Shown here in pieces: positions 6,026-58,919 of a stretch of 64,000 nt of DNA. The notes under the pieces are model-generated. The model was given only the letters and a program-made list of their open reading frames with translations, searched no databases and was not told the origin of the DNA. Made by a program: the position numbers and the translations under genes. Source of the stretch: Escherichia coli (GTDB lineage: Bacteria > Pseudomonadota > Gammaproteobacteria > Enterobacterales > Enterobacteriaceae); the NCBI RefSeq assembly GCF_046105845.1, contig NZ_CP151004.1; one strand, written 5' to 3'. Numbering within the stretch: the stretch's first letter is position 1; each line of letters opens with the position of its first letter.

Positions 6026-6787
6026 TTACCGCCACATCGCGTGTTTATCGCGATAGCAATCGACCCACATCGCCGTCGCACCACAAACGGCAACGGGCAT
6101 GATGAACAGATTAAGCAGAGGGATCATCGTAAACAGGCTGGTTAAAGCACCAAACTGCATATTGGTGATTTTGCGTGTGCGCAGGGCGGTGCGCATCTCT
6201 TTAAACGGCACTTTGTGGTTATCGAAGGGGTAATCGCAATACTGGATGGCTAACATCCAGGCGCTAAACAGGAACCACAGTACCGGCGCGACGGTTTGCC
6301 CAATACCAGGGATGAAGTAAAGAATTAGCAATACAATTGCGCGCGGCAGATACCAGGCAAATTTTTGCCATTCGCGTTTCATGATTCGCGGCACATCTTT
6401 CATGATACCGAAAATCCCGGTATCTGGCGGTGTAGCGCCAGTCAATCGTGCTTCCAGTTGTTCAGCCAATAAACCATTGAACGGAGCGGCAATCCAGTTA
6501 GCAATCGTTGAGAAGAAATAGCCAAACACTAACAGCACAGAGATGACAGCCAGAGGCCACAACAGATAGCTCAGCCATTGTAACCAGTCCGGAACATAAC
6601 TCATGAGAGTCGGGATCCAGACATCGAGTTGCGTAAAGAGCCACCAGAATGCGCCCCCCATCAACAAAATATTGACCAGCAGCGGTAAAATAACGAAACG
6701 CCGAATCCCAGGTTGCGAGACGAGCTTCCAGCCTTGCGCAAAATAGTAAAAACCGCTGCGTGGGGCAGATGTGAATGATGAAACCAT
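6026..6787 (-). CDS. cysZ: Sulfate transporter CysZ
   Basis: 253-aa multi-pass membrane ORF recognised as CysZ; synteny next to cysK. Confidence 0.9.
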
Positions 6788-7016
6788 AATCAGGATGAGC
6801 TCCTTTTGACCAATCCCAGGAAAATTCTGCGTATTTTACCGGGTAATTGCGCAATGGACAGTTAGGATATGTTCGAAAAAACAGCAAAAAGCACGATTTC
6901 ATCTATCTTTGTGCTGTGAAAGTTAATAGTGCACTTGCACTTGAGGTAATCGGCAAATACTCTTAGTGAGTAAATGTTTGCCGTGGTGGCAAGGTGTTAG
7001 AACAACAGAGAATATA

Positions 7017-12783: not shown

Positions 12784-12859
12784 TGGTGGGTCGTGCAGGA
12801 TTCGAACCTGCGACCAATTGATTAAAAGTCAACTGCTCTACCAACTGAGCTAACGACCC
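12784..12859 (-). tRNA. lysV: tRNA-Lys (anticodon UUU)
   Basis: Reverse complement matches canonical E. coli tRNA-Lys including CCA end. Confidence 0.95.
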
Positions 12860-12863
12860 GAAG

Positions 12864-12939
12864 TGGTGGGTGATGACGGGATCGAACCGCCGACCCCCTC
12901 CTTGTAAGGGAGGTGCTCTCCCAGCTGAGCTAATCACCC
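12864..12939 (-). tRNA. valY: tRNA-Val (anticodon UAC)
   Basis: Reverse complement matches canonical E. coli tRNA-Val(UAC) including CCA end. Confidence 0.95.
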
Positions 12940-12985
12940 ACTTCGGTACTTCACATTTTTACAAGAAATTTAGCTGGTGAGAAAG

Positions 12986-13061
12986 TGGTGGGTGATGACG
13001 GGATCGAACCGCCGACCCCCTCCTTGTAAGGGAGGTGCTCTCCCAGCTGAGCTAATCACCC
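12986..13061 (-). tRNA. valX: tRNA-Val (anticodon UAC)
   Basis: Second identical tRNA-Val copy, 46-bp spacer. Confidence 0.95.
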
Positions 13062-13105
13062 ACTTCTCAATTTCTTGCTACACGGCGGAGACTACATAAA
13101 GTAGT

Positions 13106-13181
13106 TGGTGGGTGATGACGGGATCGAACCGCCGACCCCCTCCTTGTAAGGGAGGTGCTCTCCCAGCTGAGCTAATCACCC
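13106..13181 (-). tRNA. valU: tRNA-Val (anticodon UAC)
   Basis: Third identical tRNA-Val copy; first gene of the operon. Confidence 0.95.
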
Positions 13182-52227: not shown

Positions 52228-53556
52228 TTAGCGGCCTTTTGCCAGATATTGCTCCATCTCTTCTTCCGGCACCATTCCACCTCCCGTCGCCCACACCAGA
52301 TGAGTGGCATTACGCAGTTGTTCTGCGCTGAAACCGTGCATCTGTTGGTAACTTACTGATGCACACACGCGCTGAGGTCCGGCCATACCCGCCAGTGCCG
52401 AAGGTTCAAGACGAATACCTTCTTCCTGCGCCAGCCAGCCAAGCATGTCATACATGGATTGATCGCTAAGGGTATAGAAGCCATCCAGTAGACGCTCCAT
52501 TGCCCGCCCGACAAAGCCTGATGCGCGACCAACTGCAAGGCCATCCGCTGCGGTAAGGTTGTCGATACCAATATCCTGAACAGAAATCTGATCGTGTAAT
52601 CCTGTATGGACGCCTAACAGCATACAAGGGGAGTGCGTTGGTTCGGCAAAAAAGCAGTGAACATGATCGCCAAATGCCAGTTTAAGCCCGAATGCGACGC
52701 CACCAGGACCACCGCCAACACCACACGGCAGATAGACAAACAGAGGGTTATCAGCATCGACAATACGACCTTGCTCGGCAAATTGCGCTTTAAGACGCTG
52801 GCCTGCGACGGAATACCCAAGGAACAACGTGCGGGAATTTTCGTCATCAATAAAGAAACAGTTCGGGTCAGACTGCGCTGCTTTACGTCCTTCCTCGACG
52901 GCAACACCATAATCTTGCTCATATTCCACGACCGTAACGCCATGGCTGCGCAGTTTCGCTTTTTTCCATGCCCGGGCATCAGCAGACATATGCACTGTCA
53001 CCTTAAAGCCAATGCGGGCGCTCATTATGCCGATTGATAACCCCAGATTTCCGGTTGAGCCCACAGCAATGCTGTATTGACTAAAGAACTGTTTAAACTC
53101 CGGAGACAGTAGTTTGCTGTAGTCATCTTCAGGCGTCAGCAACCCCGCTTCCAGAGCCAGTTTTTCTGCGTGTGCCAGGACTTCATAAATCCCGCCGCGT
53201 GCTTTTATGGAGCCGGAAATGGGCAAATGGCTATCTTTTTTCAGTAACAGTTGTCCGCTGATCGGTTGTTGATATTCCTTTTCCAGCCGTTTTTGCATAG
53301 CCGGAATGGCAACCAGTTCTGATTCAATAATCCCCCCAGTGGCAGCAGTTTCAGGAAATGCTTTTGCCAGATAGGGTGCAAAACGAGATAAGCGCGCATG
53401 GGCGTCCTGAACATCCTGTTCGGTCAGGCCAACATAAGGTAAACCTTCAGCCAATGAGGTCGTGCCAGGATTAAACCAGGTGGTTTCTTTAAGAGCAACC
53501 AGATCCTTTACCAACGGATACTGGGCGATGAGCGAGTTCATTTTAGCGTTTTCCAT
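52228..53556 (-). CDS. dsdA: D-serine dehydratase (D-serine ammonia-lyase, PLP-dependent)
   Basis: 442-aa [34 protein letters not shown]... with PLP-lysine region (SGSIKARGG). Confidence 0.95.
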
Positions 53557-53573
53557 AGTACGTCTCTTTGCGC

Positions 53574-53792
53574 TTAGATGATAAATGACAGCAGGAATGT
53601 GCCCGCCAGAGCGACGACTGAAGCGATAAATGTCGCTGTCGTATAGTATTTAAATGTTTCATTGAGCGTAGCGCCGCAATATTGCTTCACCAGCCAGAAA
53701 AGCGAGTCTGTAACGATCGTGCAGCCAATCGCACCTGAACCGATAGCAATCGCAATAATTTCCGGGCTGATGTCGGGATACAGCGGCAGCAC
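53574..53792 (-). pseudogene. dsdX: 3'-terminal remnant of the D-serine permease gene dsdX (GntP family); 5' portion and dsdC replaced by the csc island
   Basis: 72-aa ORF of purely membrane-like sequence 18 bp upstream of dsdA, where intact dsdX sits in K-12; far too short for a GntP permease. Confidence 0.7.
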
Positions 53793-54034
53793 AATGATCC
53801 ATATTTATATTTTCTTCTCCAGGTTGGCGATGCCAGTTGGCATGTTTTACCTACTTGCCTATATGGTTACTCGTTGGCGAGAACAGAGGCGGAATTGGGC
53901 ACAATTGTCCGGGAATTATTGTTATTTTTTATTGTATTGCCGTGTCGGGTGATAGGGCGTTGAGAATATCGTTGGATCTCGCCAGTGACGTCTGTTTCTG
54001 CTACAGTGCCCGTTTTACGGCAAACGGCTTGGGT

Positions 54035-55030
54035 ATGGCTTCATTAAAGGATGTCGCACGCCTGGCGGGAGTGTCGATGATGACAGTCTCCCGGGTGATG
54101 CATAATGCAGAATCTGTGCGTCCTGCAACGCGTGACCGCGTATTGCAGGCAATCCAGACCCTGAATTATGTTCCTGATCTTTCCGCCCGTAAGATGCGCG
54201 CTCAAGGACGTAAGCCGTCGACTCTCGCCGTGCTGGCGCAGGACACTGCTACCACTCCTTTCTCTGTTGATATTCTGCTTGCCATTGAGCAAACCGCCAG
54301 CGAGTTCGGCTGGAATAGTTTTTTAATCAATATTTTTTCTGAAGATGACGCTGCCCGCGCGGCACGTCAGCTGCTTGCCCACCGTCCGGATGGCATTATC
54401 TATACTACAATGGGGCTGCGACATATCACGCTGCCTGAGTCTCTGTATGGTGAAAATATTGTATTGGCGAACTGTGTGGCGGATGACCCAGCGTTACCCA
54501 GTTATATCCCTGATGATTACACTGCACAATATGAATCAACACAGCATTTGCTCGCGGCGGGCTATCGTCAACCGTTATGCTTCTGGCTACCGGAAAGTGC
54601 GTTGGCAACAGGGTATCGTCGGCAGGGATTTGAGCAGGCCTGGCGTGATGCTGGACGAGATCTGGCTGAGGTGAAACAATTTCACATGGCAACAGGTGAT
54701 GATCACTACACCGATCTCGCAAGTTTACTCAATGACCACTTCAAATCTGGCAAACCAGATTTTGATGTTCTGATATGTGGTAACGATCGCGCAGCCTTTG
54801 TCGCTTATCAGGTTCTCCTGGCGAAGGGGGTACGTATCCCGCAGGATGTCGCCGTAATGGGCTTTGATAATCTGGTTGGCGTCGGGCATCTGTTTTTACC
54901 GCCGCTGACCACAATTCAGCTTCCACATGACATTATCGGGCGGGAAGCTGCATTGCATATTATTGAAGGTCGTGAAGGGGGAAGAGTGACGCGGATCCCT
55001 TGCCCGCTGTTGATCCGTTGTTCCACCTGA
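54035..55030 (+). CDS. cscR: LacI-family sucrose operon repressor (start taken at MASLKDVARLAGVS)
   Basis: N-terminal LacI-type HTH (LKDVARLAGVSMMTVSRVMHN) plus periplasmic-binding-like sugar domain; convergent with cscA. Confidence 0.85.
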   Translation: MASLKDVARLAGVSMMTVSRVMHNAESVRPATRDRVLQAIQTLNYVPDLSARKMRAQGRKPSTLAVLAQDTATTPFSVDILLAIEQTASEFGWNSFLINIFSEDDAARAARQLLAHRPDGIIYTTMGLRHITLPESLYGENIVLANCVADDPALPSYIPDDYTAQYESTQHLLAAGYRQPLCFWLPESALATGYRRQGFEQAWRDAGRDLAEVKQFHMATGDDHYTDLASLLNDHFKSGKPDFDVLICGNDRAAFVAYQVLLAKGVRIPQDVAVMGFDNLVGVGHLFLPPLTTIQLPHDIIGREAALHIIEGREGGRVTRIPCPLLIRCST

Positions 55031-55037
55031 TATTATG

Positions 55038-56471
55038 TTAACCCAGTTGCCAGAGTGCTCCATGTTGCAGCACAGCCACTCCGTGGGAGGCATAGAGCGA
55101 CAGTTCCCGTTCTTCTGGCTGCGGATAGATTCGGCTACTCATCACCGTTTCCCCGTCGTTAATAAATACTTCCACGGATGATGTATCGATAAATATCCTT
55201 AGGGCGAGCGTGTCACCCTGCGGGAGGGGAATACTACGGTAGCCGTCTAAATTCTCGTGTGGGTAATATCGCCACAAAACAAGTCGCTCAGATTGGTTAT
55301 CAATATACAGCCGCATTCCAGTGCCGAGCTGTAATCCGTAATGTTCGGCATCACTGTTCTTCAGCGCCCACTGCAACTGAATCTCAACTGCTTGCGCGTT
55401 TTCCTGCAAAACATATTTATTGCTGATTGTGCGGGGAGAGATAGATTGATGCTGCTGGCGTAACGACTCAGCTTCGTGTACCGGGCGTTGTAGGAGTTTG
55501 CCATTGCTCTCTGATAGCTCGCGCGCCAGCGTCATGCAGCCTGCCCAGCCTTCACGTTTTGAGGGCATTGGCGATTCCCACATATCCATCCAGCCGATAA
55601 CAATACGCCGACCATCCTTCGCTACAAAGCTTTGTGGTGCATAAAAGTCATGCCCGTTATCAAGTTCAGTAAAATGCCCGGATTGTGCAAAAAGTCGTCC
55701 AGGCGACCAAATTCCGGGTATTACGCCACTTTGAAAGCGATTTCGATAACTGTATCCCTCGGCATTCATTCCCTGCGGGGAAAACATCAGATAATGCTGA
55801 TCGCCAAGGCTGAAAAAGTCCGGACATTCCCACATATAGCTTTCACCCGCATCAGCGTGGGCCAGTACGCGATCGAAAGTCCATTCACGCAATGAACTGC
55901 CGCGATAAAGCAGGATCTGCCCCGTGTTGCCTGGGTCTTTCGCCCCGACTACCATCCACCATGTGTCGGCTTCACGCCACACTTTAGGATCGCGGAAGTG
56001 CATGATGCCTTCTGGTGGAGTGAGGATCACACCCTGTTTCTCGAAATGAATACCATCCCGACTGGTAGCCAGACATTGTACTTCGCGAATTGCATCGTCA
56101 TTACCTGCACCATCGAGCCAGACGTGTCCGGTGTAGATAAGTGAGAGGACACCATTGTCATCGACAGCACTACCTGAAAAACACCCGTCTTTGTCATTCT
56201 CGTCTCCTGGCGCTAGCGCAATAGGCTCATGCTGCCAGTGGATCATATCGTCGCTGGTGGCATGTCCCCAGTGCATTGGCCCCCAGTGTTCGCTCATCGG
56301 GTGATGTTGATAAAACGCGTGATAACGATCGTTAAACCAGATCAGGCCGTTTGGATCGTTCATCCACCCGGCAGGAGGCGCGAGGTGAAAATGGGGATAG
56401 AAAGTGTTACCTCGGCGCTCGTGAAGTTTTGCTAGTGCGTTTTGCGCCGCATGTAATCGAGATTGCGTCAT
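55038..56471 (-). CDS. cscA: Sucrose-6-phosphate hydrolase / invertase (glycoside hydrolase family 32)
   Basis: GH32 motifs WMNDPNGL, FRDP and WECPD in the translation. Confidence 0.9.
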   Translation of the reverse strand: MTQSRLHAAQNALAKLHERRGNTFYPHFHLAPPAGWMNDPNGLIWFNDRYHAFYQHHPMSEHWGPMHWGHATSDDMIHWQHEPIALAPGDENDKDGCFSGSAVDDNGVLSLIYTGHVWLDGAGNDDAIREVQCLATSRDGIHFEKQGVILTPPEGIMHFRDPKVWREADTWWMVVGAKDPGNTGQILLYRGSSLREWTFDRVLAHADAGESYMWECPDFFSLGDQHYLMFSPQGMNAEGYSYRNRFQSGVIPGIWSPGRLFAQSGHFTELDNGHDFYAPQSFVAKDGRRIVIGWMDMWESPMPSKREGWAGCMTLARELSESNGKLLQRPVHEAESLRQQHQSISPRTISNKYVLQENAQAVEIQLQWALKNSDAEHYGLQLGTGMRLYIDNQSERLVLWRYYPHENLDGYRSIPLPQGDTLALRIFIDTSSVEVFINDGETVMSSRIYPQPEERELSLYASHGVAVLQHGALWQLG

Positions 56472-56504
56472 TTTTATCATCCTGGTTAAGCAAACTTGGT
56501 GAAT

Positions 56505-56517
56505 TGTTAACGTTAAC
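56505..56517. promoter_or_regulatory. Candidate CscR operator O1 (palindrome TGTTAACGTTAAC) upstream of cscA
   Basis: Self-complementary GTTAACGTTAAC core with central CG, typical of LacI-family operators. Confidence 0.5.
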
Positions 56518-56568
56518 CTTTATAAAAATAAAGTCCCTTGCTTTCATAAATGCGATGAATATCACAAA

Positions 56569-56581
56569 TGTTAACGTTAAC
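56569..56581. promoter_or_regulatory. Candidate CscR operator O2 (second exact copy of TGTTAACGTTAAC) upstream of cscK
   Basis: Identical 13-mer 64 bp from O1 within the divergent cscA/cscK control region. Confidence 0.5.
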
Positions 56582-56686
56582 TATGACGTTTTGTGATCGA
56601 ATATGCATGTTTTAGTAAATCCATGACGATTTTGCGAAAAAGAGGTTTATCACTATGCGTAAGTCAGATGAATTTAAGGGAAAAAA

Positions 56687-57610
56687 ATGTCAGCCAAAGT
56701 ATGGGTTTTAGGGGATGCGGTCGTAGATCTCTTGCCAGAATCAGACGGGCGGCTACTGCCTTGTCCTGGCGGTGCGCCAGCTAACGTTGCGGTGGGAATC
56801 GCCAGATTAGGCGGAATAAGTGGGTTTATAGGTCGGGTGGGGGATGATCCTTTTGGTGCGTTAATGCAAAGAACGCTGCTAACTGAGGGTGTCGATATCA
56901 CGTATCTGAAGCAAGATGAATGGCACCGGACATCCACGGTGCTTGTCGATCTGAACGATCAAGGAGAACGTTCATTTACGTTTATGGTCCGCCCCAGTGC
57001 CGATCTTTTTTTAGAGACGACAGACTTGCCCTGCTGGCGACATGGCGAATGGTTACATCTCTGTTCAATTGCGTTGTCTGCCGAGCCTTCGCGTACCAGC
57101 GCATTTACAGCGATGACGGCGATCCGGCATGCCGGAGGTTTTGTCAGCTTCGATCCCAATATTCGTGAAGATCTATGGCAAGACGAGCATTTGCTCCGCT
57201 TGTGTTTGCGGCAGGCGCTACAACTGGCGGATGTCGTCAAGCTCTCGGAAGAAGAATGGCGACTTATCAGTGGAAAAACACAGAACGATCGGGATATATG
57301 CGCCCTGGCAAAAGAGTATGAGATCGCCATGCTGTTGGTGACTAAAGGTGCAGAAGGGGTGGTGGTCTGTTATCGAGGACAAGTTCACCATTTTGCTGGA
57401 ATGTCTGTGAATTGTGTCGATAGCACGGGGGCGGGAGATGCGTTCGTTGCCGGGTTACTCACAGGTCTGTCCTCTACGGGATTATCTACAGATGAAAGAG
57501 AAATGCGACAAATTATCGATCTCGCTCAACGTTGCGGAGCGCTTGCAGTAACAGCGAAAGGGGCAATGACAGCGCTGCCATGTCGACAAGAACTGGAAAG
57601 TGAGAAGTAA
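56687..57610 (+). CDS. cscK: Fructokinase (PfkB/ribokinase family)
   Basis: 307-aa ORF with PfkB signatures (GGAPANVAVGIARLGG and DSTGAGDAFVAGLL). Confidence 0.9.
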   Translation: MSAKVWVLGDAVVDLLPESDGRLLPCPGGAPANVAVGIARLGGISGFIGRVGDDPFGALMQRTLLTEGVDITYLKQDEWHRTSTVLVDLNDQGERSFTFMVRPSADLFLETTDLPCWRHGEWLHLCSIALSAEPSRTSAFTAMTAIRHAGGFVSFDPNIREDLWQDEHLLRLCLRQALQLADVVKLSEEEWRLISGKTQNDRDICALAKEYEIAMLLVTKGAEGVVVCYRGQVHHFAGMSVNCVDSTGAGDAFVAGLLTGLSSTGLSTDEREMRQIIDLAQRCGALAVTAKGAMTALPCRQELESEK

Positions 57611-57671: not shown

Positions 57672-58919
57672 ATGGCACTGAATATTCCATTCAGAAATGC
57701 GTACTATCGTTTTGCATCCAGTTACTCATTTCTCTTTTTTATTTCCTGGTCGCTGTGGTGGTCGTTATACGCTATTTGGCTGAAAGGACATCTAGGATTA
57801 ACAGGGACTGAATTAGGTACACTTTATTCGGTCAACCAGTTTACCAGCATTCTATTTATGATGTTCTACGGCATCGTTCAGGATAAACTCGGTCTGAAGA
57901 AACCGCTCATCTGGTGTATGAGTTTCATTCTGGTCTTGACCGGACCGTTTATGATTTACGTTTATGAACCGTTACTGCAAAGCAATTTTTCTGTAGGTCT
58001 AATTCTGGGGGCGCTCTTTTTTGGCCTGGGGTATCTGGCGGGATGCGGTTTGCTTGACAGCTTCACTGAAAAAATGGCGCGAAATTTTCATTTCGAATAT
58101 GGAACAGCGCGCGCCTGGGGATCTTTTGGCTATGCTATTGGCGCGTTCTTTGCCGGTATATTTTTTAGTATCAGTCCCCATATCAACTTCTGGTTGGTCT
58201 CGCTATTTGGCGCTGTATTTATGATGATCAACATGCGTTTTAAAGATAAGGATCACCAGTGCATAGCGGCGGATGCGGGAGGGGTAAAAAAAGAGGATTT
58301 TATCGCAGTTTTCAAGGATCGAAACTTCTGGGTTTTTGTCATATTTATTGTGGGGACGTGGTCTTTCTATAACATTTTTGATCAACAACTCTTTCCTGTC
58401 TTTTATGCAGGTTTATTCGAATCACACGATGTAGGAACGCGCCTGTATGGTTATCTCAACTCATTCCAGGTGGTACTCGAAGCGCTGTGCATGGCGATTA
58501 TTCCTTTCTTTGTGAATCGGGTAGGGCCAAAAAATGCATTACTTATCGGTGTTGTGATTATGGCGTTGCGTATCCTTTCCTGCGCGCTGTTCGTTAACCC
58601 CTGGATTATTTCATTAGTGAAGCTGTTACATGCCATTGAGGTTCCACTTTGTGTCATATCCGTCTTCAAATACAGCGTGGCAAACTTTGATAAGCGCCTG
58701 TCGTCGACGATCTTTCTGATTGGTTTTCAAATTGCCAGTTCGCTTGGGATTGTGCTGCTTTCAACGCCGACTGGGATACTCTTTGACCACGCAGGCTACC
58801 AGACAGTTTTCTTCGCAATTTCGGGTATTGTCTGCCTGATGTTGCTATTTGGCATTTTCTTCTTGAGTAAAAAACGCGAGCAAATAGTTATGGAAACGCC
58901 TGTACCTTCAGCAATATAG
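57672..58919 (+). CDS. cscB: Sucrose:H+ symporter (LacY-like oligosaccharide:H+ symporter, MFS)
   Basis: 415-aa 12-TM MFS ORF downstream of cscK. Confidence 0.85.
   Translation: MALNIPFRNAYYRFASSYSFLFFISWSLWWSLYAIWLKGHLGLTGTELGTLYSVNQFTSILFMMFYGIVQDKLGLKKPLIWCMSFILVLTGPFMIYVYEPLLQSNFSVGLILGALFFGLGYLAGCGLLDSFTEKMARNFHFEYGTARAWGSFGYAIGAFFAGIFFSISPHINFWLVSLFGAVFMMINMRFKDKDHQCIAADAGGVKKEDFIAVFKDRNFWVFVIFIVGTWSFYNIFDQQLFPVFYAGLFESHDVGTRLYGYLNSFQVVLEALCMAIIPFFVNRVGPKNALLIGVVIMALRILSCALFVNPWIISLVKLLHAIEVPLCVISVFKYSVANFDKRLSSTIFLIGFQIASSLGIVLLSTPTGILFDHAGYQTVFFAISGIVCLMLLFGIFFLSKKREQIVMETPVPSAI

Follow-up and report, generated by a model that had tools for sequence, protein, structure and literature searches.

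The closest described system is the csc regulon of Escherichia coli EC3132 and W (Jahreis et al. 2002; Sabri et al. 2013), the same locus and the same element as those studied here. As related in PMC11251922, Jahreis et al. proposed in 2002 that a 12-bp inverted repeat, present in two copies at csc, forms the operators of the repressor CscR, and a derepressing (up-) mutation sits in one of the two repeats. The same account describes the repeats as flanking the −35/−10 region, with the downstream repeat over the start site and a CRP site adjoining the −35 element of cscA. Conservation of the csc repeats in five species was reported in 2024 (PMC11251922), and a second study describes a bidirectional csc promoter with two cAMP-CRP sites, together with a recurrent spontaneous mutation in a “cscKB operator binding site” that leads to growth on low sucrose (PMC3938415). 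CscR-dependent repression and derepressing mutations in one repeat are accordingly taken here from the literature. The E. coli W genome paper gives no promoter detail. In the searchable literature we found no EMSA or footprint report for CscR, the only CscR matches concerning Bifidobacterium, and a full-text search for the repeat as a string, GTTAACGTTAAC, returned unrelated cloning primers only.

Four further systems offer points of comparison. At the scrY promoter of pUR400 and Klebsiella, ScrR acts through its own O1/O2 pair (Cowan 1991; Jahreis & Lengeler 1993, both as described in PMC11251922); in that description the downstream operator overlaps the start site and a CRP site lies upstream, as at csc. 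ScrR nevertheless belongs to a different, FruR-like orthologous group from CscR, the scrY repeats are 14 bp long and differ in sequence, the pathway is PTS based, and the scrY promoter is unidirectional whereas csc is divergent. The lac O1/O3 pair resembles csc in having its primary operator at the start site and an auxiliary one farther upstream, with CRP in between, but its spacing is 92 bp rather than 64 bp, LacI is a tetramer, and only the csc operators are identical in sequence. CytR/CRP promoters (deoP2, cdd, udp) likewise place a LacI-family repressor site between two CRP sites, although CytR binds its weak sites only with the help of CRP, whereas the csc site in question is a perfect palindrome overlapping the edge of a CRP site. 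Finally, GalR at OE and OI is a dimeric LacI-family repressor with two operators, and it demonstrates that looping without a tetramerization helix is possible; gal differs from csc in its 113-bp spacing, in the requirement of looping for HU, and in having one operator inside a gene.

The csc locus and its palindrome pair

We analyzed a 64,000-nucleotide stretch of E. coli DNA (“the window”) that carries a csc locus. The gene names proposed in an earlier note on this DNA (cscA, cscK, cscB, cscR) agree with NCBIfam scans and RefSeq annotation, and in NZ_OZ547136.1 the regulator is annotated “cscR: sucrose operon repressor CscR”. The genes concerned are the following.

52228-53556, minus strand: dsdA (ORF listing, NCBIfam scans and RefSeq annotation)
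54035-55030, plus strand: cscR, LacI-family repressor of 331 aa, converging on cscA (LacI-family matches)
55038-56471, minus strand: cscA, sucrose hydrolase of the sucrose-6-phosphate hydrolase family (GH32), 477 aa (TIGR01322, 478 bits, above cut-off; RefSeq annotation)
56687-57610, plus strand: cscK, fructokinase, 307 aa (NF006957, 506 bits, above cut-off)
57672-58919, plus strand: cscB, sucrose/H+ symporter of the MFS oligosaccharide family, 415 aa (TIGR00882, 595 bits)

The start codons of cscA (56471, minus strand) and cscK (56687, plus strand) are separated by 215 bp with a G+C content of 31%. Of 5,426 complete E. coli genomes, 2,662 contain this interval; identity to the window is 95-99% in most of them (2,619 genomes), and the highest value among complete E. 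coli genomes in RefSeq is 99.1%. Between dsdA and cscR (53574-54034) only short ORFs occur, which fits the truncated dsdX reported for csc-positive strains. The locus shows no essential difference from csc of EC3132 and W, the nucleotide-level correspondence resting on secondary descriptions of those strains.

An exact-pattern search of the 64-kb window located two copies, and two only, of the plus-strand 13-mer TGTTAACGTTAAC, 64 bp apart both start to start and center to center and with 51 bp between them. Both lie inside the 215-bp interval, between the cscA and cscK-cscB start codons, and the LacI-family gene cscR adjoins the cluster. We refer to them as O1 and O2.

56505-56517 (core 56506-56517, center 56511.5): O1, putative cscA-proximal CscR operator (exact match, conservation, literature)
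56569-56581 (core 56570-56581, center 56575.5): O2, putative cscK-proximal CscR operator (exact match, conservation, literature)

The earlier note had reported this pair, its spacing and its location correctly; the perfect self-complementarity that it noted is that of the 12-mer GTTAACGTTAAC (56506-56517 and 56570-56581), which is its own reverse complement and has the palindromic form of a LacI-family operator, centered on CG within an AACGTT core. The leading T lies outside the symmetry, since an A would be needed at the matching 3' position and the two copies have C and T there. We rejected the 13-mer as a meaningful unit: a T at position −7 is confined to the E. coli-like clade and has no counterpart on the 3' side. 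A repeat scan found that similarity between the copies reaches barely further, to AATTGTTAACGTTAAC versus AAATGTTAACGTTAAC.

Single perfect 12-bp palindromes are common in the 64-kb window, with 17 present against about 19 expected. Exact 13-mers repeated within 120 bp are rare in simulated sequence (mean of 0.27 per 64 kb), and a repeated 13-mer containing a 12-bp palindrome occurred in none of 200 first-order Markov simulations; the palindrome pair is therefore not a product of chance. Exact repeats with a 120-bp period do exist elsewhere in the window because of a minus-strand tandem tRNA cluster at 12784-13181, which comprises three tRNA-Val(UAC) followed by one tRNA-Lys(UUU). No third site of the GTTAACGTTAAC type with at most one mismatch was found upstream of cscR or across the 64-kb window, and none with at most three mismatches in the region upstream of cscR (53557-54034). 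Matches with two or three mismatches number 38 in the window against 22.4 expected, a count equal to the shuffle maximum of 38 and near chance.

The palindromes track CscR across about 20 genera

With CscR as the query and one genome per species, we assembled 73 loci whose CscR relatives are 96-48% identical and represent about 20 genera: Escherichia, Citrobacter, Pluralibacter, Tatumella, Pectobacterium, Samsonia, Rahnella, Rosenbergiella, Providencia, Proteus, Gilliamella and other Orbaceae, Enterobacter, Klebsiella, Raoultella, Serratia, Kosakonia, Erwinia, Yersinia, Silvania, Aeromonas and a few others. GTTAACGTTAAC, with at most one mismatch, stands beside GH32, MFS or fructokinase genes in 72 of the 73, and the one locus from which it is absent also lacks the other csc genes. 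Seven distant matches, Firmicute or other, have no motif or a single marginal match. The motif thus co-occurs with CscR orthologues, and its conservation across about 20 genera led us to reject chance or a recent duplication as the origin of the pair.

Two copies were present in 58 loci, and their start-to-start spacing is 64 bp in 38, 63 bp in 6 and 62 bp in 1; the others are spaced 57 bp (4 loci, Gilliamella) or 68-69 bp (9 loci, Proteus). The gene order around the pair varies, including cscR> <cscA / cscK> cscB>, <cscA <MFS / cscR>, <cscB <cscK <cscA / cscR> and others (the stroke marks the site region), and how far O1 or O2 stands from the neighboring start codons differs widely among loci. 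Within E. coli and Escherichia the operators are unchanged in the seven variants that keep both, with substitutions falling in the spacers; an eighth variant, E. coli O78 strain 3, has lost O1 by deletion. At window position 56518, just 3' of O1, the window has C and all seven compared E. coli/Escherichia sequences that keep O1 have T.

Two CRP-type sites accompany the operators.

56551-56566, center 56558.5: CRP1, predicted cAMP-CRP site TGCGAtgaataTCACA, one mismatch to TGTGA-N6-TCACA
56592-56607, center 56599.5: CRP2, weaker CRP-like site TGTGAtcgaatATGCA, left half perfect and right half poor

CRP1 ends 3 bp before the O2 core. In E. coli CRP2 is a poor site with three mismatches, 24 bp from the O2 center; the two CRP sites are 41 bp apart with O2 between them in a sandwich arrangement. 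In anchored alignments of 22 lineages, information content per column was 1.83 bits for O1, 1.91 for O2, 1.11 for CRP1 and 0.8 for CRP2, against a background of 0.2-0.4 bits in the spacers and flanks of the module, and the most conserved part of the operators is the central TAACGTTA core. The distances are equally constrained. Where CRP1 is recognizable (47 loci), the O1-CRP1 center distance is 46-47 bp in 43 and the CRP1-O2 center distance is 17 bp in 43; the O2-CRP2 center distance is 24 bp in 40 loci. The Proteus pairs lack a clear CRP site, and Proteus and Gilliamella together show that the geometry is not universal. Judged from these alignments, O1-CRP1-O2-CRP2 is a rigid, anciently conserved module of which O1 and O2 are the two strongest elements.

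We weighed whether the repeats might instead serve another factor, or be a neutral duplication or a tandem HpaI-site (GTTAAC) relic. Symmetry alone is ambiguous because (GTTAAC)x2 is a direct repeat as well as having three dyad axes, and the lack of a direct report of CscR binding in the searchable literature would agree with such a reading. Against it, the motif follows CscR relatives over about 20 genera and several gene orders, its variation spares the TAACGTTA core as a central-CG dyad would predict, no further copy with at most one mismatch exists in the window, and derepressing mutations are described inside one repeat (PMC11251922, PMC3938415). We therefore consider a role unrelated to CscR very improbable.

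On the protein side, the N-terminal DNA-binding region of CscR (encoded in window 54035-54214), including the presumed recognition helix, is nearly invariant in the family (LKDVA..VS.MTVSR / VS(M/L)MTVSR). LacI and PurR insert a Leu of the hinge helix (L56 and L54, respectively) into the central CpG step. The corresponding CscR residue is presumably Met in E. coli-type proteins and Ile in most relatives (SARKMR / SAKKIR), according to a manual alignment to PurR; on that alignment the position would be hydrophobic but not Leu. A central-CG dyad as the CscR-family site is supported because of the conservation of the motif, the fixed distances and the near-invariant CscR N terminus. The two palindromes are almost certainly CscR binding sites, as the earlier note had proposed; operator form, the published assignment, derepressing mutations and co-occurrence across about 20 genera support this reading. 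The pair is a correct rediscovery rather than a new element, since two 12-bp repeats here were already assigned to CscR in 2002.

CRP sites and predicted promoter geometry

A strict sigma-70 and terminator scan of 56400-56750 gave no match, and promoter elements were therefore placed from CRP geometry only. An empty sigma-70 scan at the cscA promoter (PcscA) is what would be expected of an activator-dependent promoter, and the candidate −10 elements are weak. The elements considered are listed below.

56525-56530, minus strand (cscA sense): TATTTT, candidate PcscA −10
56519-56524, minus strand: TATAAA, alternative candidate PcscA −10
56645-56654, plus strand: conserved block GTTTATCACT upstream of cscK, which may hold the −10 element of the cscKB promoter (PcscKB; TATCAC)

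If CRP1 occupies the class II position at −41.5, cscA transcription would start near 56517, TATTTT would span −13 to −8, O1 would cover +1 to +12, and the O2 center would fall near −58.5. This placement is self-consistent and agrees with the published description of csc.

The rightward promoter is less readily placed. The block at 56645-56654 is kept as GTTTATCA(A/C)T in E. coli, Citrobacter amalonaticus and Pluralibacter while neighboring sequence has diverged, and when loci that share the gene order of E. coli were aligned, no convincing −35/−10 pair emerged for PcscKB. Used as a class II site, CRP2 may set a cscKB start near 56641; alternatively, the 56645-56654 block may define the promoter, which would put CRP2 at about −61.5. 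With either placement O2 would lie upstream of CRP2 and off the core promoter. Because PcscKB could not be placed, the role of O2 at this promoter is conjecture.

The module would then run from the catabolic operon through O1, a core promoter of about 27 bp, CRP1, O2 and the CRP2-like site to the rightward gene. We propose that O1 and O2 are very probably the CscR operators that govern the divergent CRP-dependent cscA and cscKB promoters, most likely by occlusion and anti-activation. CscR bound at O1, over +1 to +12 of PcscA, would block RNA polymerase directly. The edge of O2 touches or slightly overlaps what would be a 22-bp CRP1 site, and as seen from PcscKB O2 would stand just upstream of CRP2. 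A CscR dimer at O2 could thus hinder CRP binding, or docking of alpha-CTD upstream of CRP, at both promoters, and we expect it to interfere with CRP-dependent activation in this way. CscR would be released by a sucrose-derived inducer, and the 64-bp spacing would be mainly a consequence of the fixed promoter and CRP geometry. From this arrangement we infer where transcription starts, that the operators act by occlusion and anti-activation, and that looping is dispensable.

A different use of O2 is suggested by the CytR-regulated promoters, where CscR at O2, between CRP dimers at CRP1 and CRP2, would contact or mask CRP rather than exclude it. The offsets of 17 and 24 bp in CRP1-O2-CRP2 are fixed in at least 40 loci, O2 would be clear of the cscKB core promoter under both placements considered, and CytR is the best-scoring named NCBIfam model for CscR, although at 137 bits against a cut-off of 436 this match is far below threshold and reflects general family similarity only. 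(On the ScrR model TIGR02417, CscR scores just 44 bits.) CytR operators, however, are weak and CRP dependent, whereas O2 is a perfect 12-bp palindrome identical to O1, and CRP2 in E. coli is the poor site described above. Competition is favored over such a complex because the 22-bp CRP1 site and a 16-18-bp operator overlap at a 17-bp center distance. We accordingly view a CytR-like complex as improbable, and prefer interference with CRP by a CscR dimer at O2.

Operator spacing and DNA looping

The earlier note also raised the idea that the paired operators could permit DNA looping. In its cooperative form, CscR molecules bound at O1 and O2 would interact, so that the 64-bp segment with CRP1 and the cscA core promoter is looped out, perhaps with the help of a CRP-induced bend, and the spacing would be kept for helical phase. 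Two equal, perfect operators are present, their spacing is 62-64 bp in 45 of the 58 paired loci although the sequence between them is unconserved, and 63-64 bp corresponds to 6.0-6.1 turns at 10.5 bp per turn. The operators also have a CRP site between them, an arrangement shared with lac O1 and O3.

Several observations weigh against looping. In an alignment with LacI, residues 3-318 of CscR correspond to LacI 5-313; CscR is complete at residue 331, whereas LacI continues to 360. The C-terminal tetramerization helix of LacI occupies approximately residues 340-357. CscR cannot contain a LacI-type tetramerization helix because it ends 13 residues past the position aligned to LacI 313, and we found no LacI-type heptad helix in it; the closest solved homologue, 6NDI, has two chains in its entry. 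The altered spacings of 57 and 68-69 bp (−7 and +4 to +5 bp) amount to 5.4 and 6.5-6.6 turns and are not whole-turn steps. For LacI itself in vivo, repression is maximal at spacings near 59.5 and 70.5 bp, and 64 bp would fall close to a minimum. The 64-bp spacing moreover resolves into an O1-CRP1 part (46-47 bp) and a CRP1-O2 part (17 bp), each fixed on its own, and promoter geometry is enough to account for both. Where paired sites of LacI-family proteins have been ascribed to cooperativity, their spacings peak at 13, 22 and 32 bp (PMC4052901).

Looping at csc is kept possible by a strongly conserved spacing of about six helical turns, and it is unsupported because the helix is absent and the variant spacings are not whole-turn steps; from the alignments, promoter geometry would explain the spacing equally well. 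We regard cooperative looping as unlikely, with or without CRP-assisted bending, and equally doubtful in our view is a more integrated arrangement, an obligate complex in which a pair of CscR dimers spans a CRP-bent 64-bp micro-loop, or in which O2 alone serves as a CscR/CRP exclusion switch. The O1-47 bp-CRP1-17 bp-O2-24 bp-CRP2 geometry does span Escherichia to Aeromonas and Orbaceae, a range over which the intervening sequence has been scrambled and the flanking gene order has changed. If it were true, such a complex would give a dimeric LacI-family protein a compact repression architecture of a kind not described so far. Occlusion at O1 combined with anti-activation at O2 is the reading that we retain.

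Natural variants and sister loci

Deletions between the operators occur in nature. In E. coli O78 strain 3 (NZ_CP084096.1; positions 1468-1618 of the locus), a precise 64-bp deletion equivalent to window positions 56505-56568 has fused O1 and O2 into one palindrome and shortened the cscA-cscK interval from 215 to 151 bp, removing CRP1 and the presumed cscA core promoter. It looks like the outcome of recombination or slippage between two direct repeats. Coverage of the interval falls below 80% in 5 of the 2,662 E. coli genomes. The Enterobacteriaceae MAG UBA3516 has a single GTTAACGTTAAC (around position 6859 of its locus) with an O1-type left flank and an O2-type right flank, and a CRP2-like TGAGATCAAGATCG lies 10 bp downstream; its flanks suggest that O1 and O2 were fused here by a separate deletion, in a different lineage.

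Site pairs in other arrangements were seen in two groups of relatives. Nine loci from Gilliamella and other Orbaceae carry an extra CscR-type pair (around positions 6700-6850) between cscB and cscR, with the sites 14 or 20 bp apart; these loci also hold the cscA/cscK sites, in most as a pair at 57 bp. The closer of the two spacings, 14 bp, is similar to that of the overlapping sites, 13 bp apart, noted for LacI-family regulators (PMC4052901). In a second group, from Enterobacter, Klebsiella, Raoultella, Serratia, Kosakonia, Erwinia and others, the pair lies between a <GH32 <MFS operon and a cscR-like gene, which implies autoregulation of the regulator. The MFS protein in this group is only about 39-41% identical to CscB, and the substrate is possibly one other than sucrose. 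By sequence, 6NDI falls in this subgroup.

Significance

As a finding the pair has little scientific value, its two operators having been proposed in 2002 and their conservation noted once more in 2024. The present analysis makes modest additions, namely how broadly the sites are conserved, the rigid module of four elements, the lack of a tetramerization helix in CscR and the natural fusion deletions. Practical interest comes from the csc regulon itself, which lets industrial E. coli (W and engineered K-12) grow on cheap sucrose and for which deletion of CscR and operator mutations are standard routes to derepression. Exact operators with a fixed relation to the CRP sites would help promoter engineering and the design of CscR-based sucrose biosensors. 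For the biology of csc repression, these additions mainly sharpen the choice of an experiment that separates looping from promoter geometry.
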